64,000 nucleotides of DNA, taken from assembly GCA_966211815.1 (NCBI GenBank), contig CBIHOD010000005.1, positions 55,803 to 119,802 of the forward strand, read 5' to 3'. This document shows, piece by piece, positions 9,927 to 64,000 of this stretch. The first letter of the stretch is position 1; every line of letters begins with the position of its first letter. The notes below the pieces were generated by a model. That model worked only from the letters and a program-made list of their open reading frames with translations. It made no database searches and was not told the DNA's origin. Both the position numbers and the translations under genes were made by a program. The DNA is from an uncultured Burkholderiales bacterium. GTDB lineage: Bacteria > Pseudomonadota > Gammaproteobacteria > Burkholderiales > Burkholderiaceae_C.

Positions 9927-10019
9927 GGAGCTGTGACCGAGAGGCCGAAGGTGCTCCCCTGCTAAGGGAGTATGCGGGCAAAACCTGCATCGAGGGTTCG
10001 AATCCCTCCGGCTCCGCCA
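9927..10019 (+). tRNA. tRNA-Ser (anticodon GCU), encoded CCA end
   Basis: Cloverleaf folded by hand. Acceptor GGAGCTG/CGGCTCC has one G-U pair. Anticodon stem CTCCC/GGGAG carries loop CTGCTAA. There is a long variable arm, and T-arm GAGGG-TTCGAAT-CCCTC. Discriminator G followed by CCA. Confidence 0.9.
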
Positions 10020-10063
10020 GAAACGAATCAAGGGCGTATGGTTGAACACCGGTACGACCCGCC

Positions 10064-10091
10064 AAAGCCCCGGCGTGCCGGGGCTTTTTTC
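10064..10091 (+). terminator. Rho-independent terminator after tRNA-Ser
   Basis: aaAGCCCCGgcgtgcCGGGGCTttttt hairpin followed by a T-run. Confidence 0.6.
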
Positions 10092-10197
10092 TTGTCCGCG
10101 CGGTGGCCCCAACACGCGTCTTTCACGAAGGCCCGGCGCGCTGCCCCGCGGAACGTTTGAGCCGCCACCGCGCACGCGCAGTTTGGACGAACACCCG

Positions 10198-10560
10198 ATG
10201 ACCGGCCTGCCATCCCCGTCCCATGGATCGACCTCGCACCGGAAAGCGGCCGCCGCGATCCGCCTGGCGGCGGGGCTGTTCGCCTTGTTCATCCTGGTGT
10301 GCACCGCGCTCTTCTGGCTCATGGTGTCGTGGCGGTATTCGACGGCCGAAAAAGGCGCCATGCTGATCGCCGCCGTGGCCTTCGGTATCGGCCTGCTTTT
10401 CGTCGCGGACGCCGTGTCCAAGCGCAAAACCTGGGGGCGCGCCGCCGGGATCGTTCTGGGGGCTGCGGCGGTGCCTGTCCTGCCCGTCGGCACGTTGTGG
10501 GGCGGCTATGTGCTTTTCCACCTGGTCATAGGCTGGAAGGGGCCCGCGGATGCCGATTGA
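10198..10560 (+). CDS. Small integral membrane protein, function unknown
   Basis: 120-aa product with 3-4 hydrophobic helices (LFALFILVCTALFWLMV, MLIAAVAFGIGLLFV, IVLGAAAVPVLPV…). No recognisable motif. The start is uncertain. Confidence 0.45.
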   Translation: MTGLPSPSHGSTSHRKAAAAIRLAAGLFALFILVCTALFWLMVSWRYSTAEKGAMLIAAVAFGIGLLFVADAVSKRKTWGRAAGIVLGAAAVPVLPVGTLWGGYVLFHLVIGWKGPADAD

Positions 10561-11359
10561 TCCGGGCCGCCGGCGTTTTTTCCTGTGCGCCATGGGCGCT
10601 TCTTTGACCGCGGGTTGCGCCTTGCCAGGCCATGCCTCGGGACGGCCGATGGTCCGGCCGTCGTCGGTCAAGCCGCGCCACGTCCTGTGCTTCCTGGGCC
10701 CATGGAAATCCTTGTCCGTCGTGGAAGACGTGGTGGGCGAGTTCGGGCAGGGCTTCAGCGTCGACCGCGATTACTCCGCGGCCGAGCCTGATCCCCGCAT
10801 GGAAAAGGCCTTCGCCGCATCGGCCGACCGTGTCAACCCGACCTTCGCCGCCGAAGACCGCGCCCGTGTGAAGCGCCATGCCGCGGTGGCCTATGTGCTT
10901 TCGCCGCCGATCGAAAAGGCCCAGGCGCTGGCAGTCTCCACGGCGGCACTTTCGCTCGTCGCGCGGTTGATCGCCAAAGCCGGGGCCGCCGCCGTGAAGT
11001 CCGAAAGCGCGGGCATCGCCCATGGGCTGGGCCACTGGCGACGCCTGGCCGAGGAGCGCGCCTTGCGCCAGGCTTGGGTGCGCCGGCCCATCCAGGACGG
11101 CGACACCCTCTATTCATGCGGCATGCACCTGCTCGGCCTGCCGGACATCGAATGCGCCGGGGGCTTCGGGGAGATGGAAGCGGTCCGGTGGATCGACGCC
11201 CTGGCGGACAGCGCCATCGGTGGCGCGCAGGCGCCGGCGCAGCGGTTCTCGGTTGACGGCAAGGCCCCGGCCAAGCGCCTGCAACCCGTGCCCTGCGAGC
11301 GCTACGCGGAGGATGATTTCTTCTTCAATCCCTACGGGTACCTGCGTCTTTCCATTTGA
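10550..11359 (+). CDS. Hypothetical exported protein (twin-arginine-like leader plus lipobox-like LTAGC)
   Basis: N-terminus is GRRRFFLCAMGASLTAGCA. The gene overlaps the preceding one by 11 nt. I recognise no catalytic motif. Confidence 0.5.
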   Translation: MPIDPGRRRFFLCAMGASLTAGCALPGHASGRPMVRPSSVKPRHVLCFLGPWKSLSVVEDVVGEFGQGFSVDRDYSAAEPDPRMEKAFAASADRVNPTFAAEDRARVKRHAAVAYVLSPPIEKAQALAVSTAALSLVARLIAKAGAAAVKSESAGIAHGLGHWRRLAEERALRQAWVRRPIQDGDTLYSCGMHLLGLPDIECAGGFGEMEAVRWIDALADSAIGGAQAPAQRFSVDGKAPAKRLQPVPCERYAEDDFFFNPYGYLRLSI

Positions 11360-11913
11360 ACGGCTTCCTGGGCGTTGGACCGGTCAATCCCTGGGGTTGG
11401 ACATTTCTCGGAATCACCGTGGGAATCGCCACAACCGCGGGCTGCCGAGCTGGGTGCTGGCGACGCCTGTGTGGTCCGGCACTTGCAACGCGAGCAGGTC
11501 TGCATGTCGAATAGTGGTGCCGATCAGCTGGGTGAAAGCTCTAAAGCTTCCTGGGCGCTGCACCCATCGGTCCTGGGTTTTGAACGCGGCCACCCGACAT
11601 TCCCGTCACCGGGCACCTTTACTAACGCGTGAAGTTTCATCGAATCGAAATGATGAAATCAATTTCGATTTTAATTTCGCGGAAGACATTAGCAACCCAG
11701 TCACACACCTTGCCGCGTCAGGAATCATTCAGAACGATCCTGCTCTTGGAGGAGCGCGCCTTCATTTCAATCAACCGTTGATAAGCACGGCTGCCCATCT
11801 GATTGTGTCATTTTCACGATATCCGAAATCAAAATTTAGCAACTGATAAATGATAGATATGATTCATTTGATAATCAACGCACTGTTGAACGAGGGTAGT
11901 GCGAAAGACCACC

Positions 11914-12285
11914 ATGGGAAAGATACTGATCATTGACGACCATTCCGACATCCGGCGTTTACTGCGCATGACTCTGGAGTTCGAGGATTGCGAGGTCCAT
12001 GAGGCGGCCGATGCTCGAACAGGCTGGGAAGCCATCCATCGGCTTCGTCCCGACCTTGTGTTGCTGGACGTGATGATGCCCGGTGGCATCAATGGCCTGG
12101 ATCTTTGCCGCGCGCTTAAATCGGACCCTGCGCTTTCGGACATCAAAGTCTTCATCCTCTCGGCGCGTTGCGGCAGCGCGGACCGTGAAGCGGGGCTGCA
12201 AGCGGGCGCTGACGCCTATCTCGTCAAACCATTCAGCCCGATGCAACTGTTGGCGTTGATCGGCGGCGTCCGGAATGAGGCTTGA
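11914..12285 (+). CDS. Stand-alone CheY-like receiver (REC) protein
   Basis: KILIIDDHSDIRRLL…DLVLLDVMMPGGINGLDLC…ILSA…AGADAYLVKPF shows the acidic pocket, phospho-Asp and conserved Lys. An alternative GTG start lies at 11899. Confidence 0.85.
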   Translation: MGKILIIDDHSDIRRLLRMTLEFEDCEVHEAADARTGWEAIHRLRPDLVLLDVMMPGGINGLDLCRALKSDPALSDIKVFILSARCGSADREAGLQAGADAYLVKPFSPMQLLALIGGVRNEA

Positions 12286-12287
12286 TC

Positions 12288-13100
12288 ATGAAGCAGTTTG
12301 AAACCAGGCTGGAATTTCCCTCCCAGGGGGAAAACTGTTTCGACGAGACCGCAACAGCCCAGATGGCGCGGATGATGATCGATTTTGGACGCATGTATCA
12401 AGAGCGTAACGATGCTCTTCAAGAAGTGACCCGCGCCCATCATGAGGCTCTGCTGTGCCTGGCCCGAGCTGCGGAACACCGCGACGACGACACAGGCGTG
12501 CACATCGTTCGCATCGGATCGCTGGCTTGTGCATTGGCGCTGCGGCTGGGGCAGCCACTCGAGTTAGCCCGGTTGCTGCGCAAAGCCGCGCCGATGCATG
12601 ACATCGGAAAAATCGGGATTCCGGACGACGTGCTCAAGAAACCCGGCGGATTGGATCCTGAAGAGAGGAAGGTCATGAACCTTCATCCGAAAATCGGTGC
12701 GGACATCCTCGGGCGCACGCGCATTCCCCTATTCCAACTGGCCGCCGAAGTGGCTTTGTCCCACCACGAGCGATACGACGGCACGGGCTATCCCAGCCGC
12801 CTGGCCGGCGAGGCAATCCCGCTTTCCGGGCGGATCGTCGCCGTGGTCGACTTCTTCGATGCGCTGACCATGGCGCGTTGCTACCGTCCCGCCTTCTCCG
12901 ATGAAAAAGCCCTGGGGATGCTCGCAGCTGAGCGGGGCAAGGCTTTCGATCCTGCGATGGTCGATTGCTTCCTGGCCCATTCTGACCAATTGATCCGGTT
13001 GCGAGACTGCATCAATCAGAGCCCTGGCGACCTCGAGAGTTTCACCGGAGAGGATCCATTCATGTATCCAATTCGCGACCCCCAACAAAGCTCAACATGA
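12288..13100 (+). CDS. HD-GYP domain c-di-GMP phosphodiesterase (no fused receiver)
   Basis: HD (APMHDIGKIGIP) and HHERYDGTGYP motifs. The start overlaps or abuts the REC gene stop (cTTGATCATG). Confidence 0.88.
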   Translation: MKQFETRLEFPSQGENCFDETATAQMARMMIDFGRMYQERNDALQEVTRAHHEALLCLARAAEHRDDDTGVHIVRIGSLACALALRLGQPLELARLLRKAAPMHDIGKIGIPDDVLKKPGGLDPEERKVMNLHPKIGADILGRTRIPLFQLAAEVALSHHERYDGTGYPSRLAGEAIPLSGRIVAVVDFFDALTMARCYRPAFSDEKALGMLAAERGKAFDPAMVDCFLAHSDQLIRLRDCINQSPGDLESFTGEDPFMYPIRDPQQSST

Positions 13101-13897
13101 CACATCCCATTCCCTTCGGACGGGTGCTCCTGGGCATGGCGTTGATGCTGCCCAGCGTTCTTCACGCCAGCGCGTTGCTCGATCGCGTCAAAGCTGAGCA
13201 ACGGTTGCGCGTGTGCATCTGGCCCGACTACTACGGCGTGACCTACCGGCATCCGCGCACCCAGCAGTTGGCCGGCATCGACATCGACCTCTCCGTGGAA
13301 TTGGGGCGCGACCTCGGCGTGAAGGTCGAGCACGTGGAATCCTCGTTCCCGAAGTTCATCGACGACTTGAAGTCAGGCAGATGCGACATCGCCATGTTCG
13401 CCGTCGCCGTGCTGCCGCAGCGCCAGGCCCAGGTCGATTTTTCCAAACCCTACCTCCAGAGCGACATCTACGGCATCACGACTCGCAGCAACCGTGTCGT
13501 GCGGGAATGGGCCGACATCGATCGTCCGGGGGTGCAGGTGGCCGTCCAGGCGGGGACTTTCATGGAACCGGTGATGGCCGGGGCGCTGAGGCACGCCACC
13601 ATGGTGGTCGTCGAGCCGCCCGCCACGCGCGAGCGGGAACTCGAAGCCGGCCGTGTCGACGTCTTCATGACTGACTACCCCTACAGCCGCCGTCTGTTGG
13701 ACAACGCAGACTGGGCTGTGCTGATATCTCCGCCAAAGCCGTTCCATGTGCTGCCTTACGCGTACGCGGTGAAACGTGGCGAGCAAGCCTGGTTGGCTGT
13801 CGTCGACGATTTCGTCGCGCGCATCAAACGCGACGGCCGGCTTGATGGCGCGGCCAAGCGCCATGGCCTGGGCGCCATCGTGGTCCGCCAACCCTGA
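13097..13897 (+). CDS. Periplasmic solute-binding protein, family 3 (amino-acid type)
   Basis: Signal peptide, then a …LRVCIWPDYYGVTY…GIDIDLSVELGRDLGVKVEHV…DIAMFAVAV…FSKPY pattern. ATGA overlap with the HD-GYP gene. Confidence 0.8.
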   Translation: MTHPIPFGRVLLGMALMLPSVLHASALLDRVKAEQRLRVCIWPDYYGVTYRHPRTQQLAGIDIDLSVELGRDLGVKVEHVESSFPKFIDDLKSGRCDIAMFAVAVLPQRQAQVDFSKPYLQSDIYGITTRSNRVVREWADIDRPGVQVAVQAGTFMEPVMAGALRHATMVVVEPPATRERELEAGRVDVFMTDYPYSRRLLDNADWAVLISPPKPFHVLPYAYAVKRGEQAWLAVVDDFVARIKRDGRLDGAAKRHGLGAIVVRQP

Positions 13898-13918
13898 GCC
13901 GCTCCGAAGGCCGGTCCA

Positions 13919-16432
13919 ATGCCCTGCCGCACCTCACGTATCGGCTCCTGGCCGCCCAGCCGCATCGCCCTATGGTCCGGTGGGTTGATCGTCCTGCTGG
14001 TGGCCATCGCCATGGGGTGGCTGGGGATGCACGAGTACGAAGAAGCTTTCAAACAAGAGCGTTCGCGAGAAGAACTCTTGGCGCGGGTGCTCGAGGACCA
14101 CGCCACGCGGACCGTTGAAGCCACAGCGATCGCTTTGGCGGCCGTGGCGGACTTGCTGGCCGCGCAGCCCCACGTCGATCCCCGTCAAACGCGCTCTGCC
14201 TTGAATCAGTCGCTGGCGGGGCTGCCCTTCCTGCGTGCCATCTCCGTGCTTGACAGCCGGGGCGCGTTGCTGGTCAGCACGACGGCACGCGATACGGGCC
14301 AGGTACTTGACCTGGGGCTGCTGGGACCGCTACCGAATGCGGGCGGCGATCGACTGGGTGGTTTCATCGCAGGCCGCAGCCTGGGGGACATGGCGCCGGC
14401 TCGCAGAAGCGGCCCCCATCCCGCCGGCGTGGGCTTCATCCCGATGGTTCACAAGGCGCGGATGAGGTCGGGCGAGGAATTGCTGTTGGTTGCGGAGATC
14501 AATCCGGACGCCTTTTCCAACCATCAAACCTTGACTTTGAATGACGAGGCCTCCGGTGCCTTGCTGACGAATTATGAAGGCGAGGTGCTGGCCACGACAC
14601 CGTCGATCCCGACCTTGGCGGGGTCCCAATTGGCTGACCACCCGGTATTCCGCAGCTATCTTCCCGCTACGGAACACGCGAGCTACCTTGGCGCGGGAGC
14701 GCGCGGCGAGCCGCAAGTGGTGGCGTTCCGGGTGTCGCGTTCGCGGCCGCTGGTTGTCATGGTGGAGCATCCTCAAGCGGCGGTGCGGGCCGACTGGTGG
14801 CAGGCTGTGCAAGCTTTCGCCGCCGTTGCCGGGGCCGCCTTGTTGTTCCTCGCCGCCATGACAGCGACCGCTTCGCGCGGCCTGCGATCCCGGGAGAGCA
14901 CCCGGCGGCTGCTCGATGAAGCACAAGCCGAGGTGGCTCGCCGAGAACGCGAACTCAGCGTGACGATCACCAGCGTGCGGCAACTCATCTTCCGCACGGA
15001 CGCGGAGGGCGCTATCACGTTCGTCAACGCGCATTGGACGGCCGTCGGGGGGGGCAGCCTGCGCAGTGCCATTGGGCAGAAGCTCCACGACCTCGTATTG
15101 CCCGAACAGCGTGCCAAGATCCGCGCACTTTTTTCCGCCCATGCCGGAGCCGGTGTTCGCACGGCACATGCATCGGCGGTGGGCCACGACGGCGTGCTCC
15201 GCCATTTCGACATGGCGGTGGTCCCCCTGCAGCAGGAAGGCGGCATGGTTTCCTTCGCGGGGTGCGCGACCGAAGTGACGGAACGCGTCATCGCCGAGCA
15301 AAAACTCCAGACCCAGCTTGCGGTGTCCGCACTGATGCTTGAAGTCAGCCCGTTGCCTTTGTGGATGTGCGACTTGTCGGGCAATTACGTCAGCGTCAAC
15401 CAGGCCTGGGAGGAATTCTCAGGCTGCCGTCGCGGCGAAGTGATCGGTCAGCATTCATCCAGGTGGCTTTCTCGCGAGGAAGCTGCGTTACACGAGGCGC
15501 ATGACCGAGCGTTGCTGGCACAAGGCGTTGGGGGGCGGGTGCGTTACGAAGCCTGCGTCGGGCACCGCGACGGTTCGCAACGCGACGCCATGCTGATCAA
15601 AGTGGTGGTCGCGGGCGATGGCGGGCTCCCGTCCGGCATTCTGTCCGTCCTGATGGACGTGAGCGAATTCCGGGCGGCCGAGCGCGCCACAAGGGAGGCA
15701 CGCGATCTCGCTGAAGAGGCGTCGCGCGCAAAGACCGAGTTCGTCGCAAACATGAGCCATGAACTGCGCACCCCGCTGCAGTCCATCATCGGCTTCGCTG
15801 AATTGGGCGTGGCGCGGGGCCGCGAACATGCCAGGCTGGCGGCCATGTTCGGAGACATCCACGCCGCGGGTGAACGGATGCTGGCTTTGGTTAACGACTT
15901 GCTCGACGTTTCCAAGATCGAAAGCGCGGTGGGCACATTTCATCTGGAGAGAATCGATTTGCGCACGCTGGTGCGTTCGGTGGCGCGAGAGTTGGAGCCT
16001 CTGATCGCTAGTCGGCAATTGCGCCTGGAGACGCAGTTGTCGGATTTGCCATTGACAGCGAAGGTCGACCCGACGCGCTTCCAGCAGGTCGTCCGCAACG
16101 TCTTGGCCAATGCCATCAAGTTCTCCCCGCCGCAAGGTTTGGTTCGTATCGTGGGTGGGGTGGCATCCGGCGGCGACATTCAGTTGACCATCTCCGATCG
16201 CGGGCCGGGCATTCCGCCGGCGGAGATCGACCGCATCTTCGAACCTTTCGTCCAATCCAGTCGAACCAAGGACGGTTCCGGCGGCACTGGCCTGGGCCTG
16301 GCCATTTGCCGAAAAATTCTCGAGGTGCATGGGGGGGGGATCCATGCCGAAAACCTGCCGGAGGGCGGGACTGCCTTCCATATCGAATTGCCAGCGCGTG
16401 GTGCGACGGAAACGGCTCCCTTGCCTTTGTGA
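13919..16432 (+). CDS. Sensor histidine kinase (two TM helices flanking a periplasmic domain of about 250 aa, two PAS, HisKA, HATPase_c; no receiver)
   Basis: H-box FVANMSHELRTPLQSI, N-box VRNVLANAIKFSP, G1 SDRGPGI and G2 GGTGLGLAICRKI. PAS-like segments lie between residues ~330 and 590. Confidence 0.9.
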   Translation: MPCRTSRIGSWPPSRIALWSGGLIVLLVAIAMGWLGMHEYEEAFKQERSREELLARVLEDHATRTVEATAIALAAVADLLAAQPHVDPRQTRSALNQSLAGLPFLRAISVLDSRGALLVSTTARDTGQVLDLGLLGPLPNAGGDRLGGFIAGRSLGDMAPARRSGPHPAGVGFIPMVHKARMRSGEELLLVAEINPDAFSNHQTLTLNDEASGALLTNYEGEVLATTPSIPTLAGSQLADHPVFRSYLPATEHASYLGAGARGEPQVVAFRVSRSRPLVVMVEHPQAAVRADWWQAVQAFAAVAGAALLFLAAMTATASRGLRSRESTRRLLDEAQAEVARRERELSVTITSVRQLIFRTDAEGAITFVNAHWTAVGGGSLRSAIGQKLHDLVLPEQRAKIRALFSAHAGAGVRTAHASAVGHDGVLRHFDMAVVPLQQEGGMVSFAGCATEVTERVIAEQKLQTQLAVSALMLEVSPLPLWMCDLSGNYVSVNQAWEEFSGCRRGEVIGQHSSRWLSREEAALHEAHDRALLAQGVGGRVRYEACVGHRDGSQRDAMLIKVVVAGDGGLPSGILSVLMDVSEFRAAERATREARDLAEEASRAKTEFVANMSHELRTPLQSIIGFAELGVARGREHARLAAMFGDIHAAGERMLALVNDLLDVSKIESAVGTFHLERIDLRTLVRSVARELEPLIASRQLRLETQLSDLPLTAKVDPTRFQQVVRNVLANAIKFSPPQGLVRIVGGVASGGDIQLTISDRGPGIPPAEIDRIFEPFVQSSRTKDGSGGTGLGLAICRKILEVHGGGIHAENLPEGGTAFHIELPARGATETAPLPL

Positions 16433-57250: not shown

Positions 57251-57822
57251 GCGCCCGGCAGGCGGTGGCCGACTACATCCGGGCCAAGGACCTGAACCGC
57301 CCGCACTTGATGCGGTCGGCCTTCACCGAAGGCGCGCTGCTCGAGATGGTGGTGCGCACCGGCGCCATCTCCTTCCCGCCCGAGGTGGCGGGCCGGGACG
57401 GCATCGCCGACGTGCTGGTGCGCCGGTTCGGCCAGGCCTACGAGAACGTCTACACCTTCTGCCTCGCCGACGAGCCGCCCCCGCACGACGCCGCCGCTTT
57501 CAGCTGCGACTGGCTGGTGGGCATGTCGGGCAAGGCCGACGGCGAGGTGCGCGTCGGCTGCGGCCGCTACGACTGGGTGTTCGAGGGGGGCGAAGGCGGC
57601 ATGAAAGCCTCCCGGCTGACCATCACCATCGAAGAAATGGCGGTGCTGCCGTCCGAGGCGCTGAGCCCCGTCATGGACTGGCTGTCGGACCTGCCGCCGG
57701 TCTGGTGCGGGGCGTGCGAGGCCCTTGAACGCGCGCCCGGGCACGCGGCGCTGGCACCCGTCAAGGACTACTGCCGCCTGTGGGCTCCGGCGACAACACA
57801 ACAACCAAGGAGGTTCTCATGA
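57247..57822 (+). CDS. Hypothetical protein, translationally coupled to the oxoprolinase-like gene
   Basis: ATGA overlap at both ends (57247 and 57819). Size and pattern are compatible with an NTF2/SnoaL-like fold, but no motif is certain. Confidence 0.5.
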
Positions 57823-58292
57823 GTTACAAGCGCATCCTCGTGCCGGTCGATTTCTCGGCCGACTCGCTGCACGCGCTCGAAGTCGCCGCCAGGGAGTTCG
57901 CCTCGCTGGGCAGCAGCCTGGTCCTGCTGCACGTCTTCGAGCCGCCGATGGACGCCAGGGCGGCCACGCCCTACATGTCGCGCGAGCACCTGCAGATGGT
58001 GTCGCGCGCGCAGGCGGAGGGCGGGCAGCCCGCCGACCCCGCCGAGATCCACTTGCAGCAGCTGAAGAACCTGGCCGCGCCGCTGACCTGCGCCTGGAAG
58101 GAACTGCAGACCGTGGTGCGCACCGGGCAGCCCACCGACCGGATCATCGAAGCCGCCGAGCAGGAAGGCGTCGACCTGGTCATCATGGGTTCCCATGGCA
58201 TCGGCGGCCTGGGGAAGATGCTGTTCGGCAGCACGACCTACGACGTGGCGCGCAAAGTGAAATGCGCGGTGCTGATCAGCAAGCGTTCCTGA
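57819..58292 (+). CDS. Universal stress protein (UspA family)
   Basis: ILVPVDFSADS … DLVIMGSHGIGGLGKMLFGSTTYDVARKVKCAVLI. AGGAGG RBS. Confidence 0.88.
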   Translation: MSYKRILVPVDFSADSLHALEVAAREFASLGSSLVLLHVFEPPMDARAATPYMSREHLQMVSRAQAEGGQPADPAEIHLQQLKNLAAPLTCAWKELQTVVRTGQPTDRIIEAAEQEGVDLVIMGSHGIGGLGKMLFGSTTYDVARKVKCAVLISKRS

Positions 58293-58328: not shown

Positions 58329-59099
58329 TTGCTCGCCCTCAAGCTCCTGCTGATCGCATCGACCGTCTACCTGTCGTCGATGGCCGCGCGCTTCGGCGGC
58401 CACCGCCTGTCCGGCCTGATCACCGGCATGCCGATGATCATCGGCCCGATCTTCGCGTTGCTGCTGCACGACCACGGCCCGGCACGCACCGGCGAGATCG
58501 CCCTGGCCACCCTGGTGTGCTTTCCCGCGACCCTGATGCATTCCGTGGTGTTCGCCTGGGCTTGTCGACGGATGCACTGGGTGGCCTGCCTGTTGCTGGC
58601 CACGTTGGCCTACCTGCTGTGCGCCCTGGCGCTCAACGCGTTGGCGTTGCCGCCCATGGCCGTGGGCGCGATCGCGGCGCTGTCCCCGGCGGCGGCCCTG
58701 CGCCTGATGCCGGCCGTGCCCGGCGGCGGTGCGGGCGCGGGCGCCGCGGTGCGCATCCCGCGGCAGGAGTTGGTGCTGCGCATCGCGGCCGCCCTGGCCA
58801 TGGCGGCGTCCATCATCGTCGGGGCCGACTTCCTGCCGGTCTTCGTCAGCGGCCTGCTGCTGGCCGTGCCGATCACCGGCGCCGTGCTGCCGTGCTTCAC
58901 GCTGCCGCGCTACGGCGCCGCCGCCACCGTCCAGCTGCTCGGCGGGTTCGCCCGGGGGTTGCACGGTTTTTGCGCATTCGTCCTGCTGATGTACATGTTG
59001 CTGCCGGTTTTGCCGGGGCCGGCCGCTTTTTGCCTGTCGTTGCTGGCCGCTGCCCTCGCGGGCTGGGCTGCCAGCCGCAGGCCGGCTTTCAAGCGCTGA
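58329..59099 (+). CDS. Integral membrane protein, function unknown
   Basis: About 8 hydrophobic helices and a TTG start. No motif recognised. Confidence 0.45.
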   Translation: MLALKLLLIASTVYLSSMAARFGGHRLSGLITGMPMIIGPIFALLLHDHGPARTGEIALATLVCFPATLMHSVVFAWACRRMHWVACLLLATLAYLLCALALNALALPPMAVGAIAALSPAAALRLMPAVPGGGAGAGAAVRIPRQELVLRIAAALAMAASIIVGADFLPVFVSGLLLAVPITGAVLPCFTLPRYGAAATVQLLGGFARGLHGFCAFVLLMYMLLPVLPGPAAFCLSLLAAALAGWAASRRPAFKR

Positions 59100-59985
59100 A
59101 GAGCTGGCGCCTGGCCGCCGTCTGGATCGCCACCACGCAGGGGTGGGTGATGCGCCGTTCCACCGACACCGCGTAGAACTCCTCGACCAGCTCGCTGCTG
59201 CGGCCGAGCACTTCGACCGCGTACTGGGCCGCGGTCTCTTTCTCCATCACCGTGGGCGACATGAAAACGCCGCGGCCCTGCTTGCCGAAAGCGTTCATCA
59301 GCGCCCCGTCGTCGAACTCGCCGACGATGCGCGGCCGCAGCTGCCGGCGCGCCAGCCAGCCGTCCAGCTCCGCCCGCACCGGCGACGAGGCGCCCTGGAT
59401 CAGCATCGGCGCCCCGTCCAGGCAGGCAGGGAATTCGCCCTTCAGGCGCGCTTTCAAGGTGGGCGCGCAAAAAAAGGTCATCGTGCTCGTGCCCAGCAAA
59501 TGGTTGAACGCCTTGACGCTGACGCGTCGCGACAACGGCTCGTCCGCCAGCACCAGGTCCAGGCGGTGCAGGGCGAGCTGGGCCAGCAGGTCGGAGAATT
59601 TGCCTTCGTGGCAGACCATGCGCACCGGCTCGGCCACCGCCATCGCCGGTGCCAGCATGTGGTACGCCAGGGACTTGGGCACCGAATCGGCCACGCCCAC
59701 CCGGAAATCCAGCACCTGCTCTCGGCCGGTGTCCAGCCGCAGGACGGACTCCATCTCCGCGCCCAGCCCGAAGATCTCGTCCGCATAGCTCAACGCCACC
59801 CGGCCGTCGTCGGTGAGTTCGAGCCGGCGGCCCGCTTTGCGGAACAGCTTTCGGCCCAGCCGCTCCTCCAGGAGCTTGATTTGCCCGGAGAGCGTTTGCG
59901 GCGTGGTGTGCAGCTGTTCGGCGGCGCGCATCACGCCGCCGGCCTTGGCGACCACCCAGAAATAGTGAAGGTGCTTGAAATTCAT
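59089..59985 (-). CDS. LysR-family transcriptional regulator (NhaR-like)
   Basis: MNFKHLHYFWVVAKAGGVMRAAEQLHTTPQTLSGQIKLLEERLG is the NhaR-type wHTH. Confidence 0.87.
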   Translation of the reverse strand: MNFKHLHYFWVVAKAGGVMRAAEQLHTTPQTLSGQIKLLEERLGRKLFRKAGRRLELTDDGRVALSYADEIFGLGAEMESVLRLDTGREQVLDFRVGVADSVPKSLAYHMLAPAMAVAEPVRMVCHEGKFSDLLAQLALHRLDLVLADEPLSRRVSVKAFNHLLGTSTMTFFCAPTLKARLKGEFPACLDGAPMLIQGASSPVRAELDGWLARRQLRPRIVGEFDDGALMNAFGKQGRGVFMSPTVMEKETAAQYAVEVLGRSSELVEEFYAVSVERRITHPCVVAIQTAARRQLFSA

Positions 59986-60156
59986 GGTGCTTCCCTGGGA
60001 AAGTGCCGGAAACTCTACGAAAAAAACGAAGTTGAAAATCAATAAATACGAATTTACGCGAAGTGTAGTCCCCGATAAATTTCAATTCCGGCAACGGGTT
60101 CCCGGCTCTTGGGGCCCCGATCTTCAACGCCACTTGGCTTGTCTAAGGAGAACAGC

Positions 60157-60687
60157 ATGCGCATGAGTACCAAAGGCCGTTTCGCCGTCACCGCCATGAT
60201 GGAAGTCGCCCTGCGCGAGCGTGGCGGGCCCGTCAGCCTGGCGGGCATCGGCGAACGCCAGAACATGTCCCTGTCCTATCTGGAGCAACTCTTCAGCCGC
60301 CTGCGCCGCCACGGGTTGGTCGAAAGCACACGCGGCCCGGGTGGCGGTTACACGCTCGGTCGCCGCGCCCAGGACATCACCGTGGCCGACATCGTCGTGG
60401 CGGTCGACAGCGAAGGCGAAGAGGCGCAGCAGCGCGGCCAGGGCGGCGACGTCCCCCAGAACCTGACCGGCGACCTGTGGCGCAAGCTCGACGCCAAGAT
60501 GATCGAGTACATGGACGCGATCACCTTGCGCTCCCTGGTCGACGAGCAGCTGGCCCAGGGCTTGAAGGTGGACGTCAAGCCGGCCAAGCGCGGACTGGTG
60601 GCCAAGATCTCGCAAAGCGCGGGCCTGCGCATCACCGCCCCCAACTCGGTGTTCGCTTTCGGCCGGTCCTTCCGGCCCGCGTCCTGA
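60157..60687 (+). CDS. Rrf2-family (IscR-like) transcriptional regulator with no cysteine residues
   Basis: MRMSTKGRFAVTAMMEVALRE…LSYLEQLFSRLRRHGLVESTRGPGGGYTL is IscR-like. The region that normally holds the Cys ligands reads SEGEEAQQRGQGGDVPQNLTGDLW. Confidence 0.87.
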   Translation: MRMSTKGRFAVTAMMEVALRERGGPVSLAGIGERQNMSLSYLEQLFSRLRRHGLVESTRGPGGGYTLGRRAQDITVADIVVAVDSEGEEAQQRGQGGDVPQNLTGDLWRKLDAKMIEYMDAITLRSLVDEQLAQGLKVDVKPAKRGLVAKISQSAGLRITAPNSVFAFGRSFRPAS

Positions 60688-60711
60688 GCGCTTTCCCCTT
60701 CCTCGACCGAC

Positions 60712-60740
60712 AGCCCGCCCCGCGCGGGCTTTTTTTTTTG
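60712..60740 (+). terminator. Rho-independent terminator after the Rrf2 gene
   Basis: AGCCCGC-cccgc-GCGGGCT followed by T10. Confidence 0.65.
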
Positions 60741-60845
60741 GTGTGGGTGTAAGAGGCCCGGGGATGAGGCTGACCAAGCAGTGCCTGGCGCCGGTGCACG
60801 GCCGGCCGCCAAGGCATCACCTCAAACCCATCAGGAGATCCCGAC

Positions 60846-61154
60846 ATGACCACCACCCCGCGCAACCCCCACGCCGCCATCGCCGCCTCCGCCCTGGCCT
60901 CCCTGCTCGCCCTGGGCATCGTCGGCCCGGCGTCAGCCCAGGACAAAGCCGCCTCCGGCAAGGAGAAGTGCTACGGCATCGCCAAGGCCGGCCAGAACGA
61001 TTGCGCCAACCTGTCGGGCTCGCATTCCTGCGCCGGGCAGAGCAAGGTGGACAACGGGCCCGATGAATGGAAATACGTCGCCAAAGGCACCTGCGCCAGC
61101 ATGAAGGGCATGACGGCGGAGGAAGCGAAGAAGAAAAGCGCCGCGGGCAAGTGA
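60846..61154 (+). CDS. bufA: DUF2282-type bufferin precursor peptide (BufA1-like), Sec signal peptide plus 4-Cys core
   Basis: AGGAGA RBS. Leader ends …GPASA/QDK. Core is [26 protein letters not shown]…KGTCAS (C-x10-C-x8-C-x20-C). Confidence 0.85.
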
Positions 61155-62086
61155 TCCGGCCCCTCCAGCAAACGCTGCCCGCCGTGGAGACGCCGACCCT
61201 GCACCAGTCGCGCCGGTCCGCCGACGAAAAAGTCTGCGGCATCGGCTGGCGCCAGCCCCACTATGGGGAGCTGCTGCGGCGGAACGAATCGCCGGCCTTC
61301 CTGGAGGTGCACTCCGAGAACTTCTTCTGCGAAGGCGGCGCGGCCCTGGAAGTGCTGCGCCAGGGCAGGGCGCGCCATCCCATCAGCCTCCACGGCGTGG
61401 GCTTGTCGCTGGGCTCGGCCGCCGGCCTGGACGACTGGCACCTGGACCGGCTCGCTGCCCTGGTGGCGGCCATCGAACCGGTGCGGGTGTCCGACCATGC
61501 CAGCTTCGCGCGGGCGCCCCTGCCGGGCGGGGCGGCGACGGTGCACGCCAACGACCTGCTGCCGGTGGCCTTCACCGAGGCGTCGCTGGCCATCATGGCG
61601 GCCAACGTTTCGCGGGTGCAGGACAGGCTCAAGCGCCCCATCCTGGTGGAGAACCTTTCCGCCTACCTGGCCTGGGCCGACGACGAGATCGCCGAGCCGG
61701 CGTTTTTCAATGAACTCGCGAGTCGCACCGGCTGCGGCCTGCTCCTGGACGTGAACAACCTCGTCGTCAACGCCGTGAACGCGGGGCGGGAGCCGGTCGC
61801 CGCCTCGGCGGCCTGGATCGACGCGTTGCGACCCGGAATCGTCGGCGAGGTCCACCTGGCGGGTTATGCGGACAGCGGCGACGGCCTGGCGGTCGACGAC
61901 CACGGCAGCCGCGTGCGCGAGCCGGTCTGGTCGGTCTACCGCCATGCGGTCGCGGCGCTGGGCGCCTGCCCCACGCTCATCGAATGGGACACGGACGTGC
62001 CGGCGCTGGACGTCCTGCTGTGCGAAGCCGCCCGGGCCGAACGGGAGTGCGCGCGTGCGCAGGCATGCCGGAAGGAGGCCGCGTGA
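61151..62086 (+). CDS. bufB: DUF692 multinuclear non-heme iron oxidase (MNIO, BufB-like)
   Basis: [51 protein letters not shown] and LIEWDTD motif series. The GTG start overlaps the bufA stop; the start codon is tentative. Confidence 0.85.
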
Positions 62087-62955
62087 TGGATCCGGACTCC
62101 ACGGCCCAGCACGCGCGAGGCGGCCGCGAGCGCGAGCTGTCGCGCCAAAAGCTCTTGCTGGGCAGTTTGGCGATCGACCGTGAACCATCCGCGCTGCGCG
62201 GTTGGTTGAAGACGTCGCCCGCGCGGCCACGGCCTGACGGCGACCCGGCGCACCGGGGCTGGCAGGTTTACCAGGCCAACGCCCATGCCGGCGCCGCCCG
62301 CGCGCTCGCCTCGGCCTTTCCCACGGTGCGGGCGCTGGTGGGCGAGGCTTCCTTCGAGGCGATGGCCCGGGCTTATTGGCATGCCTGTCCACCGGTCCGG
62401 GGCGACTTGTCCTGGCTGGGCGAAGGCTTGCCCGAATTCATCGACACCGCCGAGTGTCTGGCCGACGAACCCTACCTGGCAGACAGCGCCCGCCTCGATT
62501 GGGCGCTGCACCGCTGCGAAGCCGCCGCCGACACCGACCCCGCCGGCCTGGCCAGCCTGTCGGCCTTGGCCGACGCGCCGCCGGACAAGCTGCGGCTTTG
62601 GTTGGCGCCAGGCGCGCGGCTGATCCGCAGCGCCCACCCCATCGTCGCTGTCTGGAAGGCGCACCAGGCGCTGTCCGACGGCGCCGTCGATCCTTTCGCG
62701 CCGGTGCGGGAAGCCTTCGCCAATAGGCGCGGCGAATGCGCCTGGGTGCGGCGCGAGGGCTGGCGCGCAGGCGTCGAAGCCGTCGACGAACCCACGGCCG
62801 CCTTCATCGACGCCTTGGCGCCGGATGCCGGGTCACCGCATGCCGGCAGCCTGGCGCAGGCACTGCATGCCGCCGGTCCGGGCTGGCGATTCGACGCCTG
62901 GCTCCTGGATGCGGCGCGGCGTGGGTTCGTCAGTCATTTGGAGCGCCTGGCCTGA
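62086..62955 (+). CDS. bufC: DUF2063-type MNIO partner protein (BufC-like)
   Basis: TGATG overlap with the MNIO gene and a GGAAGGAGG RBS. YQANAHAGAARALASAFPTVRALVGEASFEAMARAYW… is typical of DUF2063. Confidence 0.78.
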   Translation: MDPDSTAQHARGGRERELSRQKLLLGSLAIDREPSALRGWLKTSPARPRPDGDPAHRGWQVYQANAHAGAARALASAFPTVRALVGEASFEAMARAYWHACPPVRGDLSWLGEGLPEFIDTAECLADEPYLADSARLDWALHRCEAAADTDPAGLASLSALADAPPDKLRLWLAPGARLIRSAHPIVAVWKAHQALSDGAVDPFAPVREAFANRRGECAWVRREGWRAGVEAVDEPTAAFIDALAPDAGSPHAGSLAQALHAAGPGWRFDAWLLDAARRGFVSHLERLA

Positions 62956-63043
62956 CCGCGCGACGGCCGCATGCGCGGAACCCGTCGCCTGGATCCAGCC
63001 CTTTTCACCACCACTTCCCATTTTCAAGAACAGGATTCCACCG

Positions 63044-63538
63044 ATGGCTTCATGGATCACCCTCCCCACCGTCCTGCGCAAGGCGCACGCCAAGGCCGCC
63101 GCGGCCCTGGAATCGCTGCAGCCCGCCGCGCAACTGGCGGCCCGGCTTTATGTGGGCCAGGTGTTTTTCCTTTCTGGCTTGACCAAAGTGCGCGATTGGG
63201 AAACCACCCTGGCGCTGTTCAACGACGAATACCGGGTGCCCCTGTTGCCGCCCGAGGCGGCCGCCTGGGCCGGCACCGCCGGCGAGCTGGCGTTGCCAGT
63301 GCTGCTGGTGCTGGGCTTGGGCGGGCGATTCGCCGCGCTCGGCTTGTCGGTGCTGAACATCGTCGCGGTCCTCAGCCTGACGGACATCGCGCCGGCGGCG
63401 CTGCAGCAGCACGAGTTCTGGGGAAGCCTCTTGTTGGCGTTGTTGCTTTGGGGGCCGGGTCGCTGGTCCCTGGACGCCTGGCTGGTGCGGAGGCTGGCCC
63501 GGAGCGAAAGCGGGCGTTTGGCGGCGCCCCGGATTTGA
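63044..63538 (+). CDS. DoxX-family inner-membrane protein
   Basis: LAARLYVGQVFFLSGLTKV … GELALPVLLVLGLGGRFAALGL … LLLWGPGRWSLD pattern (4 TM helices). Confidence 0.8.
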   Translation: MASWITLPTVLRKAHAKAAAALESLQPAAQLAARLYVGQVFFLSGLTKVRDWETTLALFNDEYRVPLLPPEAAAWAGTAGELALPVLLVLGLGGRFAALGLSVLNIVAVLSLTDIAPAALQQHEFWGSLLLALLLWGPGRWSLDAWLVRRLARSESGRLAAPRI

Positions 63539-63794
63539 GGCGAGCGAAGGGGCGCCGGAAATCCCCGGCGCGGGTTCGCAGAGCGGTGGTTCGCGGCCGA
63601 TTCCCGGGGCTGGCCGGGCCCTGAAATCGCACCTCGGCCAGCCTGGACGGGATCGGCGTCGCGAAGCCCTTGGGCGCGGGAGGGCGTGCAGGCAGGCGCT
63701 CACCGCGACAATACGGCCTGGCAACCGCTGGCGGGTCCGCCGAGGACTCCCGCCGCGGCTTGGCCGAACCCTTCCTCCGCTCCTTCTTCACGGC

Positions 63795-64000
63795 ATGAAA
63801 CATTTGGTCTTGCTGGGCTGCGGTCGCGCCCATGTGCAGGTGCTGGCGCAGCTGGCCCGTTCGCCCTTGCCCGGTGTCGAGGCGACGCTGGTGTCGCCGC
63901 AATCCGGCTTCATCGACCCCGGCATGCTGGCCCGCTGGCTGGCCGGCCTTGGGGGGATCGAGGACTGCAGTCTGCCGGTCGCGGCGCTGGCCGATGCCGC
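63795..64000 (+). CDS. FAD/NAD(P)-binding oxidoreductase, N-terminal fragment (runs off the window)
   Basis: MKHLVLLGCGRAHVQVLAQL Rossmann-type dinucleotide motif. Only 68 codons are visible. Confidence 0.45.
   Translation, partial: MKHLVLLGCGRAHVQVLAQLARSPLPGVEATLVSPQSGFIDPGMLARWLAGLGGIEDCSLPVAALADA

Follow-up and report, generated by a model that had tools for sequence, protein, structure and literature searches.

One of the closest described counterparts of the genes considered here is the buf1ABCD operon of Caulobacter vibrioides (CCNA_03363-03366), which encodes bufferin 1 (Leprevost et al. 2024, PMC11626156). In the Caulobacter peptide, Cys23 (CysII) and Cys31 (CysIII) are converted to 5-thiooxazoles, Cys12 and Cys52 (CysI and CysIV) are joined by a disulfide, and a two-stranded sheet (Thr9-Tyr13 and Trp44-Lys48) carries the copper site (PMC11626156); the DoxX protein of this operon is dispensable for modification as well as for function. 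A cluster with the same gene order, that is, a DUF2282 precursor, a multinuclear non-heme iron oxidase (MNIO), a DUF2063 protein and a DoxX protein, and likewise with a promoter, here a predicted one, of the extracytoplasmic function (ECF) type upstream, is found at positions 60846-63538 of a stretch of 64,000 nucleotides of contig CBIHOD010000005.1 from an uncultured Burkholderiales bacterium (this whole stretch is referred to as the window). Very probably, the cluster is a Buf1-type bufferin (captophorin) operon, bufABCD, that makes a copper-buffering periplasmic peptide. What is shown for the locus itself is the identity of the four genes, the conservation of the catalytic residues, of the Cys and of the promoter motif, the synteny and the purifying selection.

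Three other systems invite comparison. The gigPABT operon of Cupriavidus metallidurans, also a member of the Burkholderiales, is the same kind of four-gene operon and, like many relatives of the window locus, has a divergent ECF sigma gene (rpoQ-rsqA); however, RsqA is described as membrane-bound (PMC13492112), whereas the relatives of the window have a small soluble zinc-finger anti-sigma factor. The Neisseria operon NMB2140-2145 (gonophorin; its NGO1945 protein is the one in structure 3DEE) contains an MNIO, DUF2063 and DoxX module that is controlled by an ECF sigma factor and its zinc-finger anti-sigma factor, a cytoplasmic protein, but its precursor is of the EGKCG-repeat type and not of the DUF2282 type, and its sigma and anti-sigma genes, which have no counterpart in the window, are located inside the operon. 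Finally, the methanobactin system MbnABC relies on the same enzyme superfamily, with identical iron ligands, and likewise turns Cys of a ribosomal peptide into a copper ligand. It differs in that oxazolone-thioamide groups are formed, the precursor is leader-dependent and lacks a Sec signal, and the partner protein is MbnC instead of a DUF2063 protein.

The genes of the window cluster and the features that belong directly to them are the following:

60846-63538, plus strand: the buf cluster, four co-oriented genes encoding the BufA1 precursor, the MNIO oxidase BufB, the DUF2063 partner BufC and a DoxX protein
60833-60838, plus strand: ribosome-binding site AGGAGA of bufA, 7 nt before the ATG, read from the sequence
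60846-61154, plus strand: bufA, 102 aa, DUF2282/BufA1 precursor (PF10048, 89.1 bits, E 1.8e-25)
61184-62086, plus strand: bufB, MNIO (DUF692) oxidase, 300 aa from the preferred GTG at 61184 (PF05114, 297.3 bits, E 1.1e-88)
GTG at 61151, plus strand: alternative start of bufB, giving 311 aa and overlapping the bufA stop (GTGA)
62086-62955, plus strand: bufC, 289 aa, DUF2063 partner (PF09836, 66.3 bits, E 2.9e-18)
63044-63538, plus strand: doxX (bufD), 164 aa, DoxX-family membrane protein (PF07681, 62.9 bits, E 4.6e-17)

A search with profile hidden Markov models placed all four proteins above the Pfam thresholds. An earlier reading of this DNA, made from the letters alone (the original prediction), had proposed exactly these four families and had assigned the cluster to the gig/buf operon type, and this assignment is borne out by the four Pfam matches, by the gene order in nearly all of the 80 related loci described below, by nine conserved iron ligands and by the fold matches of BufC. 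Several of its details can also be found in the DNA: the 102-aa peptide at 60846-61154 with its AGGAGA motif, its Sec-type leader and its C-x10-C-x8-C-x20-C pattern, the whole DUF692/MNIO motif series in the second open reading frame, and the TGATG overlap at the start of bufC, at 62084-62088, where the bufC ATG and the bufB stop have one base in common. The sequence upstream of the bufC ATG is GGAAGGAGG. The spacing of the genes is 29 nt between bufA and bufB (or a 4-nt overlap with the alternative start), a 1-nt overlap between bufB and bufC, and 88 nt between bufC and doxX. The GC content at third codon positions is 0.83-0.91 in the plus-strand frames versus 0.70-0.77 in the antisense open reading frames, which favours the former; long antisense open reading frames are typical of GC-rich DNA.

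BufA matched PF10048, which is named BufA1 in the precomputed Pfam annotation, with a score far above the cut-off of 22.4 bits. Among the candidates scored, 7796 homologues were obtained at E<=1e-5, and PF10048 was found in all 120 of the BufA matches listed. With the NCBIfam models, BufA gave no BufA1 match, only a weak BufA2 match below the threshold. The four Cys codons, C42 (60969-60971), C53 (61002-61004), C62 (61029-61031) and C83 (61092-61094), map onto Cys12, Cys23, Cys31 and Cys52 of Caulobacter Buf1, and the two precursors have in common a Sec-type leader and the Cys-flanking motifs EKCY, HSCA, WKxVxK and GxC. All four Cys are invariant among 44 aligned homologues, in the contexts EKC, QNDC (NDC), HSCAG and GTC (GxC). 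The spacing of 10, 8 and 20 residues occurs in 54 of 71 relatives, and the other 17 have 10, 6 and 20. It should be noted that in the BufA homologue of one locus (L034) CysIII is replaced by Phe (GSHSFAGQ), which could be a natural variant, a pseudogene or an assembly error of a metagenome bin.

The predicted leader comprises residues 1-31 (60846-60938), with Arg6 in the N-region, a hydrophobic core at residues 10-26 (mean Kyte-Doolittle value 2.29) and the ASA-Q motif at residues 29-32, so that cleavage is expected between ASA and QDK and would release a core of 71 aa. This assignment is based on residue composition, hydropathy and the AxA motif, and the same layout is present in the 44 BufA homologues. 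The AlphaFold2 model of BufA is weak (predicted local distance difference test, pLDDT, 56.7); its strands at residues 39-43 and 76-79 nevertheless occupy positions equivalent to those of the Caulobacter Buf1 sheet. A sequence search of BufA against the PDB returned nothing useful.

The enzyme BufB was compared with MbnB, in which the iron atoms are bound by His54, His90, Glu133, Asp163, Asn166, His192, Asp208, His210 and Glu239 (PMC9060507). The counterparts in BufB are H81, H116, E167, D200, N203, H235, D249, H251 and E278 (in the numbering of the 311-aa form), and all nine are invariant across 81 sequences. The closest solved relative is 3BWW, a DUF692 protein from Histophilus (E 3.5e-30). 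The top NCBIfam model for BufB was MNIO_BufB, and the scores of the other models were 188.7 bits for HvfB (cut-off 360), 55.3 for ApyH, 43.8 for MbnB (cut-off 325) and 24.0 for ChrH. The tblastn matches for BufB in two loci, L003 and L006, are interrupted by an internal stop, which could reflect natural variation, pseudogenes or wrongly assembled metagenome bins.

In BufC, PF09836 covers residues 46-119. The AlphaFold2 model shows two domains and is confident (pLDDT 86.7, predicted template modelling score 0.82), and its three best fold matches in the PDB, each with a probability of 1.00, are two entries of TglI (8HI7_A and 8HCI_A) and NGO1945 (3DEE), which adds to the likeness with the Neisseria system. 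The two-domain layout agrees with the peptide-binding-like C-terminal domain that is expected as a second domain of the DUF2063 partner in a Buf1-type cluster. TglI is the partner of the MNIO enzyme TglH and has been solved in complex with its enzyme, and 3DEE is a DUF2063 protein that is treated as an MNIO partner in PMC13097082. A sequence search of BufC against the PDB gave nothing useful. An identical 289-aa protein is already on record. The fourth protein had been described as a DoxX protein with four transmembrane segments that closes the unit: the family is confirmed by PF07681, while the segment count comes from a hydropathy plot alone, in which four hydrophobic segments are visible and the first one is weak. 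The NCBIfam family HvfX gave 54.8 bits for this protein (cut-off 80).

Other classes of related peptides were considered for the cluster and set aside. Membership in the Buf2 class (BUF_6/12Cys, BufA2) was rejected, as the BufA2 model gave BufA a sub-threshold score of 24.9 bits against a cut-off of 60 and the precursor has four Cys only. BufA does not contain the repeat of the EGKCG-repeat captophorins (oxazolin, fontiphorin and gonophorin), and BufB stays far below the HvfB cut-off, which also separates it from the Neisseria system. Methanobactin MbnABC was rejected on the MbnB score and on the neighbouring genes, which are of the DUF2282 and DUF2063 families instead.

A scan of species-representative genomes for BufB relatives yielded 80 loci with 46-72% identity, which span the Burkholderiales, the Rhizobiales, Mesorhizobium and Ensifer among them, and others; Cupriavidus was not among them. 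The order bufA-bufB-bufC-doxX is retained in nearly all 80 loci, with doxX following bufC in most, and the Rrf2 regulator gene that precedes bufA in the window was found in none of them, being adjacent only in the window and in its closest relative, L081. Thus, the four genes behave as a self-contained cassette. The ratios of nonsynonymous to synonymous substitution rates (dN/dS) versus L081 are 0.20 for bufA, 0.32 for bufB, 0.34 for bufC and 0.16 for bufD; all four genes are under purifying selection. The nearest named relatives, Aquincola, Rubrivivax, Rhizobacter, Roseateles and Paucibacter, place the window in the Aquincola/Rubrivivax/Roseateles group of the Burkholderiales.

The comparison with the closest relatives also bears on the start of bufB, for which a GTG overlapping the bufA stop (GTGA) had originally been proposed. 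This GTG exists at 61151, but its use as the start is doubtful. In the two closest relatives, L081 and L082, a 2-nt indel after the bufA stop runs the overlapping frame into a TGA, and the segment after the bufA stop is poorly conserved, whereas the flanking coding DNA averages 89% column identity in the same alignment. The GTG that matches 61184 of the window remains in frame in both relatives, the start called by the gene caller in L081 is an ATG two codons past the equivalent of this GTG, and the stretch from 61184 to the conserved GIGWR motif offers no further canonical start codon. Because the frame from 61151 is broken in the closest relatives and the GTG at 61184 is conserved, bufB most likely starts at 61184 and encodes a protein of 300 aa, with a gap of 29 nt to bufA.

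Upstream of bufA, three features lie close together:

60712-60739, plus strand: intrinsic terminator of the upstream Rrf2 gene, a 7-bp GC stem followed by a run of 10 T (terminator scan; conserved in L081)
60749-60777, plus strand: predicted ECF-sigma promoter, with a -35 element (T)GTAAGA at 60749-60754, a 17-nt spacer and a -10 element GACCAA at 60772-60777
60781-60817, plus strand: GC-rich stem-loop at the predicted 5' end of the buf mRNA (RNA fold, -28 kcal/mol)

The Rrf2 gene ends in a clear intrinsic terminator, and the buf genes thus form their own transcription unit. The G of GTAAGA is 97 nt before the bufA ATG, and transcription is predicted to start near 60783. The strict pattern GTAAGR-N16/17-GAC has its sole match in the 64-kb window at this site, versus 0.22 matches expected, and the looser pattern GTAA[GC][GAC]-N15-18-GAC occurs upstream of bufA in the window and in 45 related loci, which yield the consensus TGTAAGRA-N14/15-cGACymA. 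A weight matrix built from the 45 relatives, with the window left out, scored the site at 17.5 bits versus 7.2 bits for the runner-up in the window. The promoter motif and the 5' untranslated region are almost identical in L081. A scan for sigma-70 promoters at 59900-64000 found none. The Caulobacter SigF promoter GTAACC-N16-CGAA was also tried, and it had three loose matches among 81 upstream regions, so that the GTAAGR motif (GTAAGA-N17-GAC in the window), which had been recognised by inspection, was preferred. The adjacent Rrf2 protein was set aside as a regulator of the buf genes, since it neighbours bufA only in the window and L081 and the terminator separates it from bufA.

The motif is strikingly similar to the promoter recognised by Neisseria sigma-E/MseR, GTMAGBWTT-N12/13-CGTCTAAH (PMC2893595), as is seen when GTAAGGTT-N12/13-CGTCTAA of the gonophorin operon is set beside the buf consensus. 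Regulatory genes are found next to the operon in many relatives: an ECF sigma gene stands beside bufA in 36 of them, within L002-L060 (for example, upstream of bufA at 4799-5603 in L014 and 4100-4947 in L017), divergently in 35, and in 36 of 36 it is followed by a gene for a small soluble anti-sigma factor with a C...H-x3-C-x2-C zinc-finger motif. Matches to zf-HC2 were also obtained for these anti-sigma factors. The same arrangement of sigma factor and zinc-finger anti-sigma factor drives an MNIO-containing operon in Neisseria. This anti-sigma factor differs from the NrsF type that is reported in the bufferin literature for Buf1 clusters. In L017, a Hydrogenophaga-like locus, the sigma gene and bufA are separated by a thioredoxin/AhpC-like gene. 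Neither a sigma nor an anti-sigma gene was found in the 64-kb window or, in L081, within 10 kb downstream of the cluster, in contrast to Caulobacter, where sigF-nrsF adjoin the operon. For this reason, it is predicted that a sigma factor encoded elsewhere acts on the window operon in trans, which is an assumption.

The stem-loop that follows the promoter had z-scores of -1.7 and -2.0 in two RNA fold runs. In relatives of the Comamonadaceae, a hairpin of the form AACCnG...CnGGTT likewise follows the -10 element closely; its loop varies, and changes on one arm are matched on the other (A-T, C-G and G-C at the fifth position). It was seen in L001, L004, L011, L015-L017, L021, L024, L025, L027, L030-L032, L036-L038, L041 and L046, and suggests a conserved RNA element, possibly with a stabilising or regulatory role. 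The hairpin of the window occupies the same place with a different sequence. An Rfam scan of the window returned tRNA only.

It should also be mentioned that the consensus given for ECF16 (RpoQ) in a 2026 Cupriavidus transcriptome study (PMC13492112, Table 4), with AATTCG as the -35 and GGTTAC as the -10 element, reads like the Caulobacter SigF promoter GTAACC-N16-CGAA (PMC3511200) in reverse complement. This might account for the absence of ECF16 promoters in front of gig and rpoQ in that study.

By homology with Caulobacter Buf1, from which the chemistry, the export route, the copper binding and the physiological role are taken over, the operon would work as follows. Transcription would start from the ECF-sigma promoter at 60749-60777, read by a sigma factor that acts in trans and is restrained by a small zinc-finger anti-sigma factor, both encoded elsewhere. 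Translation of bufA would give the 102-aa precursor, of which BufB and its DUF2063 partner BufC would oxidise C53 and C62 to 5-thiooxazoles in the cytoplasm. The precursor would then be exported by the Sec pathway and cleaved by signal peptidase after ASA31, and a disulfide between C42 and C83 would staple a small beta-sheet fold. The 71-residue periplasmic product would chelate copper through its two thiooxazoles, in a ratio of 1:1 as expected from PMC11626156, and thereby buffer copper stress, and DoxX would be an accessory membrane protein. The predicted mass of the product is about 7269.35 Da, that is, 7279.43 for the unmodified 71-aa core (monoisotopic) minus 10.08. That no dedicated protease or exporter gene lies beside the operon, as originally pointed out, was confirmed. 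The earlier proposal that Cys residues are converted to 5-thiooxazoles would, by homology, apply to C53 and C62 only, with C42 and C83 forming the disulfide instead; and the inducing signal, which had been called unknown, is no longer wholly open in view of the conserved ECF-type promoter.

Several points weigh against this interpretation. The chemistry and the metal binding proposed for the window locus derive from homologous systems, and its expression is predicted. The score of BufB with MNIO_BufB is 302.3 bits against a cut-off of 310, and thus 8 bits short. The low confidence of the BufA model leaves the predicted disulfide geometry unsupported by the model, and CysII and CysIII are separated by 8 residues instead of the 7 of the characterised Caulobacter peptide (10/8/20 versus 10/7/20). 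The sigma and anti-sigma genes are missing from the window and from the downstream 10 kb of L081, and it could not be demonstrated for Cupriavidus that the adjacent sigma factor contributes to the expression of gig (PMC13492112). The cluster has every testable property of a Buf1 cluster apart from a BufB score above the strict cut-off and linked sigma genes, which are frequent but not obligatory.

The same genes and the same chemistry could also serve mainly to counter oxidants such as hypochlorite, other soft metals (Au, Cd and Hg) or thiol stress, although we regard this as rather unlikely. The anti-sigma factors of the relatives are cytoplasmic zinc-finger proteins (H-x3-C-x2-C, 36 of 36) and not membrane-bound periplasmic sensors like NrsF/RsqA, the promoter is similar to that of the Neisseria sigma-E/MseR regulon, to which msrAB also belongs (PMC2893595), and a thioredoxin-like gene stands between the sigma gene and bufA in L017; but the expression of meningococcal sigma-E was unchanged by exposure to oxidants (PMC2893595). 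As to metals, gig operons respond to gold and cadmium besides copper, MerC-bufferin fusions exist, and the 64-kb window contains no copper-resistance genes, whereas the only DUF2282 product studied is copper-selective, binds Cu(I) and Cu(II) very tightly and protects against copper. Copper buffering and such a wider role are not mutually exclusive. A related proposal, which we put forward tentatively and consider somewhat improbable as a whole, is that the DUF2282 operons of this Burkholderiales lineage are members of the regulon of an ECF sigma factor with an MseR-type zinc-finger anti-sigma factor, and not with a membrane anti-sigma factor of the NrsF/RsqA type. The window operon would then be an orphan member served in trans, with the 5' hairpin adding post-transcriptional control. 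If this were true, the peptide would be induced not by metal in the periplasm but by thiol or oxidant stress in the cytoplasm, or by the displacement of zinc by Cu(I).

The lack of sigma and anti-sigma genes, which 36 relatives have beside bufA, together with an Rrf2 gene with its own terminator in the upstream position, might indicate that the operon is a silent remnant, cut off from its dedicated regulators and no longer expressed or functional. This is very unlikely, given four intact open reading frames, dN/dS values of 0.16-0.34, a promoter and 5' untranslated region nearly identical to those of L081 and the retention of all catalytic ligands and Cys; moreover, many precursor genes without a linked MNIO gene are found in the literature, and a sigma factor can act in trans. 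With slightly less probability still, BufB could install oxazolone-thioamide pairs of the methanobactin type in place of 5-thiooxazoles, as it is homologous to MbnB, has identical iron ligands, and the two modifications, which alter the mass equally, were mistaken for each other in earlier studies of related peptides (PMC13097082). However, 5-thiooxazoles were assigned to bufferins by nuclear magnetic resonance and labelling, and oxazolin was revised likewise (PMC11626156 and PMC13097082), the MbnB model scores very low on BufB, and no MbnA or MbnC gene was found. It is hardly conceivable that the older annotations are right and that gene 1 encodes an integral membrane protein and gene 3 a DNA-binding regulator, with no peptide maturation at all. 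Database names such as 'uncharacterized membrane protein' and 'putative DNA-binding domain-containing protein' speak for it, as do the description lines of Pfam, but published biochemistry already contradicts it: in experiments, DUF2282 proteins served as substrates of MNIO enzymes and DUF2063 proteins as their partners. Moreover, BufA is hydrophobic only in its cleavable leader, and the BufC model matches TglI.

The surroundings of the Buf1-type operon include the following upstream neighbours:

57780-58292: universal stress protein gene
58329-59099: gene for a 256-aa membrane protein without a family match
59089-60042, minus strand: gene for an NhaR-like LysR regulator, divergent
60154-60687, plus strand: Rrf2 regulator gene, IscR-like (153 bits against a cut-off of 207)

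The Rrf2 regulator is very strongly conserved (dN/dS versus L081 0.04) and has no cysteine, and thus it cannot bind an iron-sulfur cluster in the manner of IscR. Downstream, a gene on the plus strand begins at 63795, 256 nt past doxX, of which the window shows 63795-64000; its counterpart in L081 (6148-7218) encodes a Pyr_redox_2 flavoprotein of 356 aa, and in L006 a similar N-terminus is present some 1 kb past doxX. Otherwise, the window consists of ordinary chromosomal DNA, with genes for CysRS, AccA, TilS, aspartokinase, tRNA-Ser, fumarase, ABC and TRAP transporters, oxoprolinase and signalling proteins. The GC content dips to 0.62-0.63 at 10000-14000, straight after the tRNA-Ser gene (9927-10019), versus a mean of 0.68 for the window. 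This stretch encodes an HD-domain protein, a solute-binding protein, a PAS histidine kinase and two open reading frames without a family match; the possibility of an integrated element was checked, and signalling genes but no integrase were seen.

The cluster is one more well-formed example of a large, well-described family, which has thousands of members and is treated in several recent papers (PMC11626156, PMC12452194 and PMC13097082). New are a concrete predicted product with a 71-residue core, the corrected start of bufB and the conserved promoter motif. Together with the sigma and zinc-finger anti-sigma pair of the relatives, this motif could help to explain how the DUF2282 bufferin operons of the Burkholderiales are switched on, a question that was left open by the recent work on Cupriavidus.

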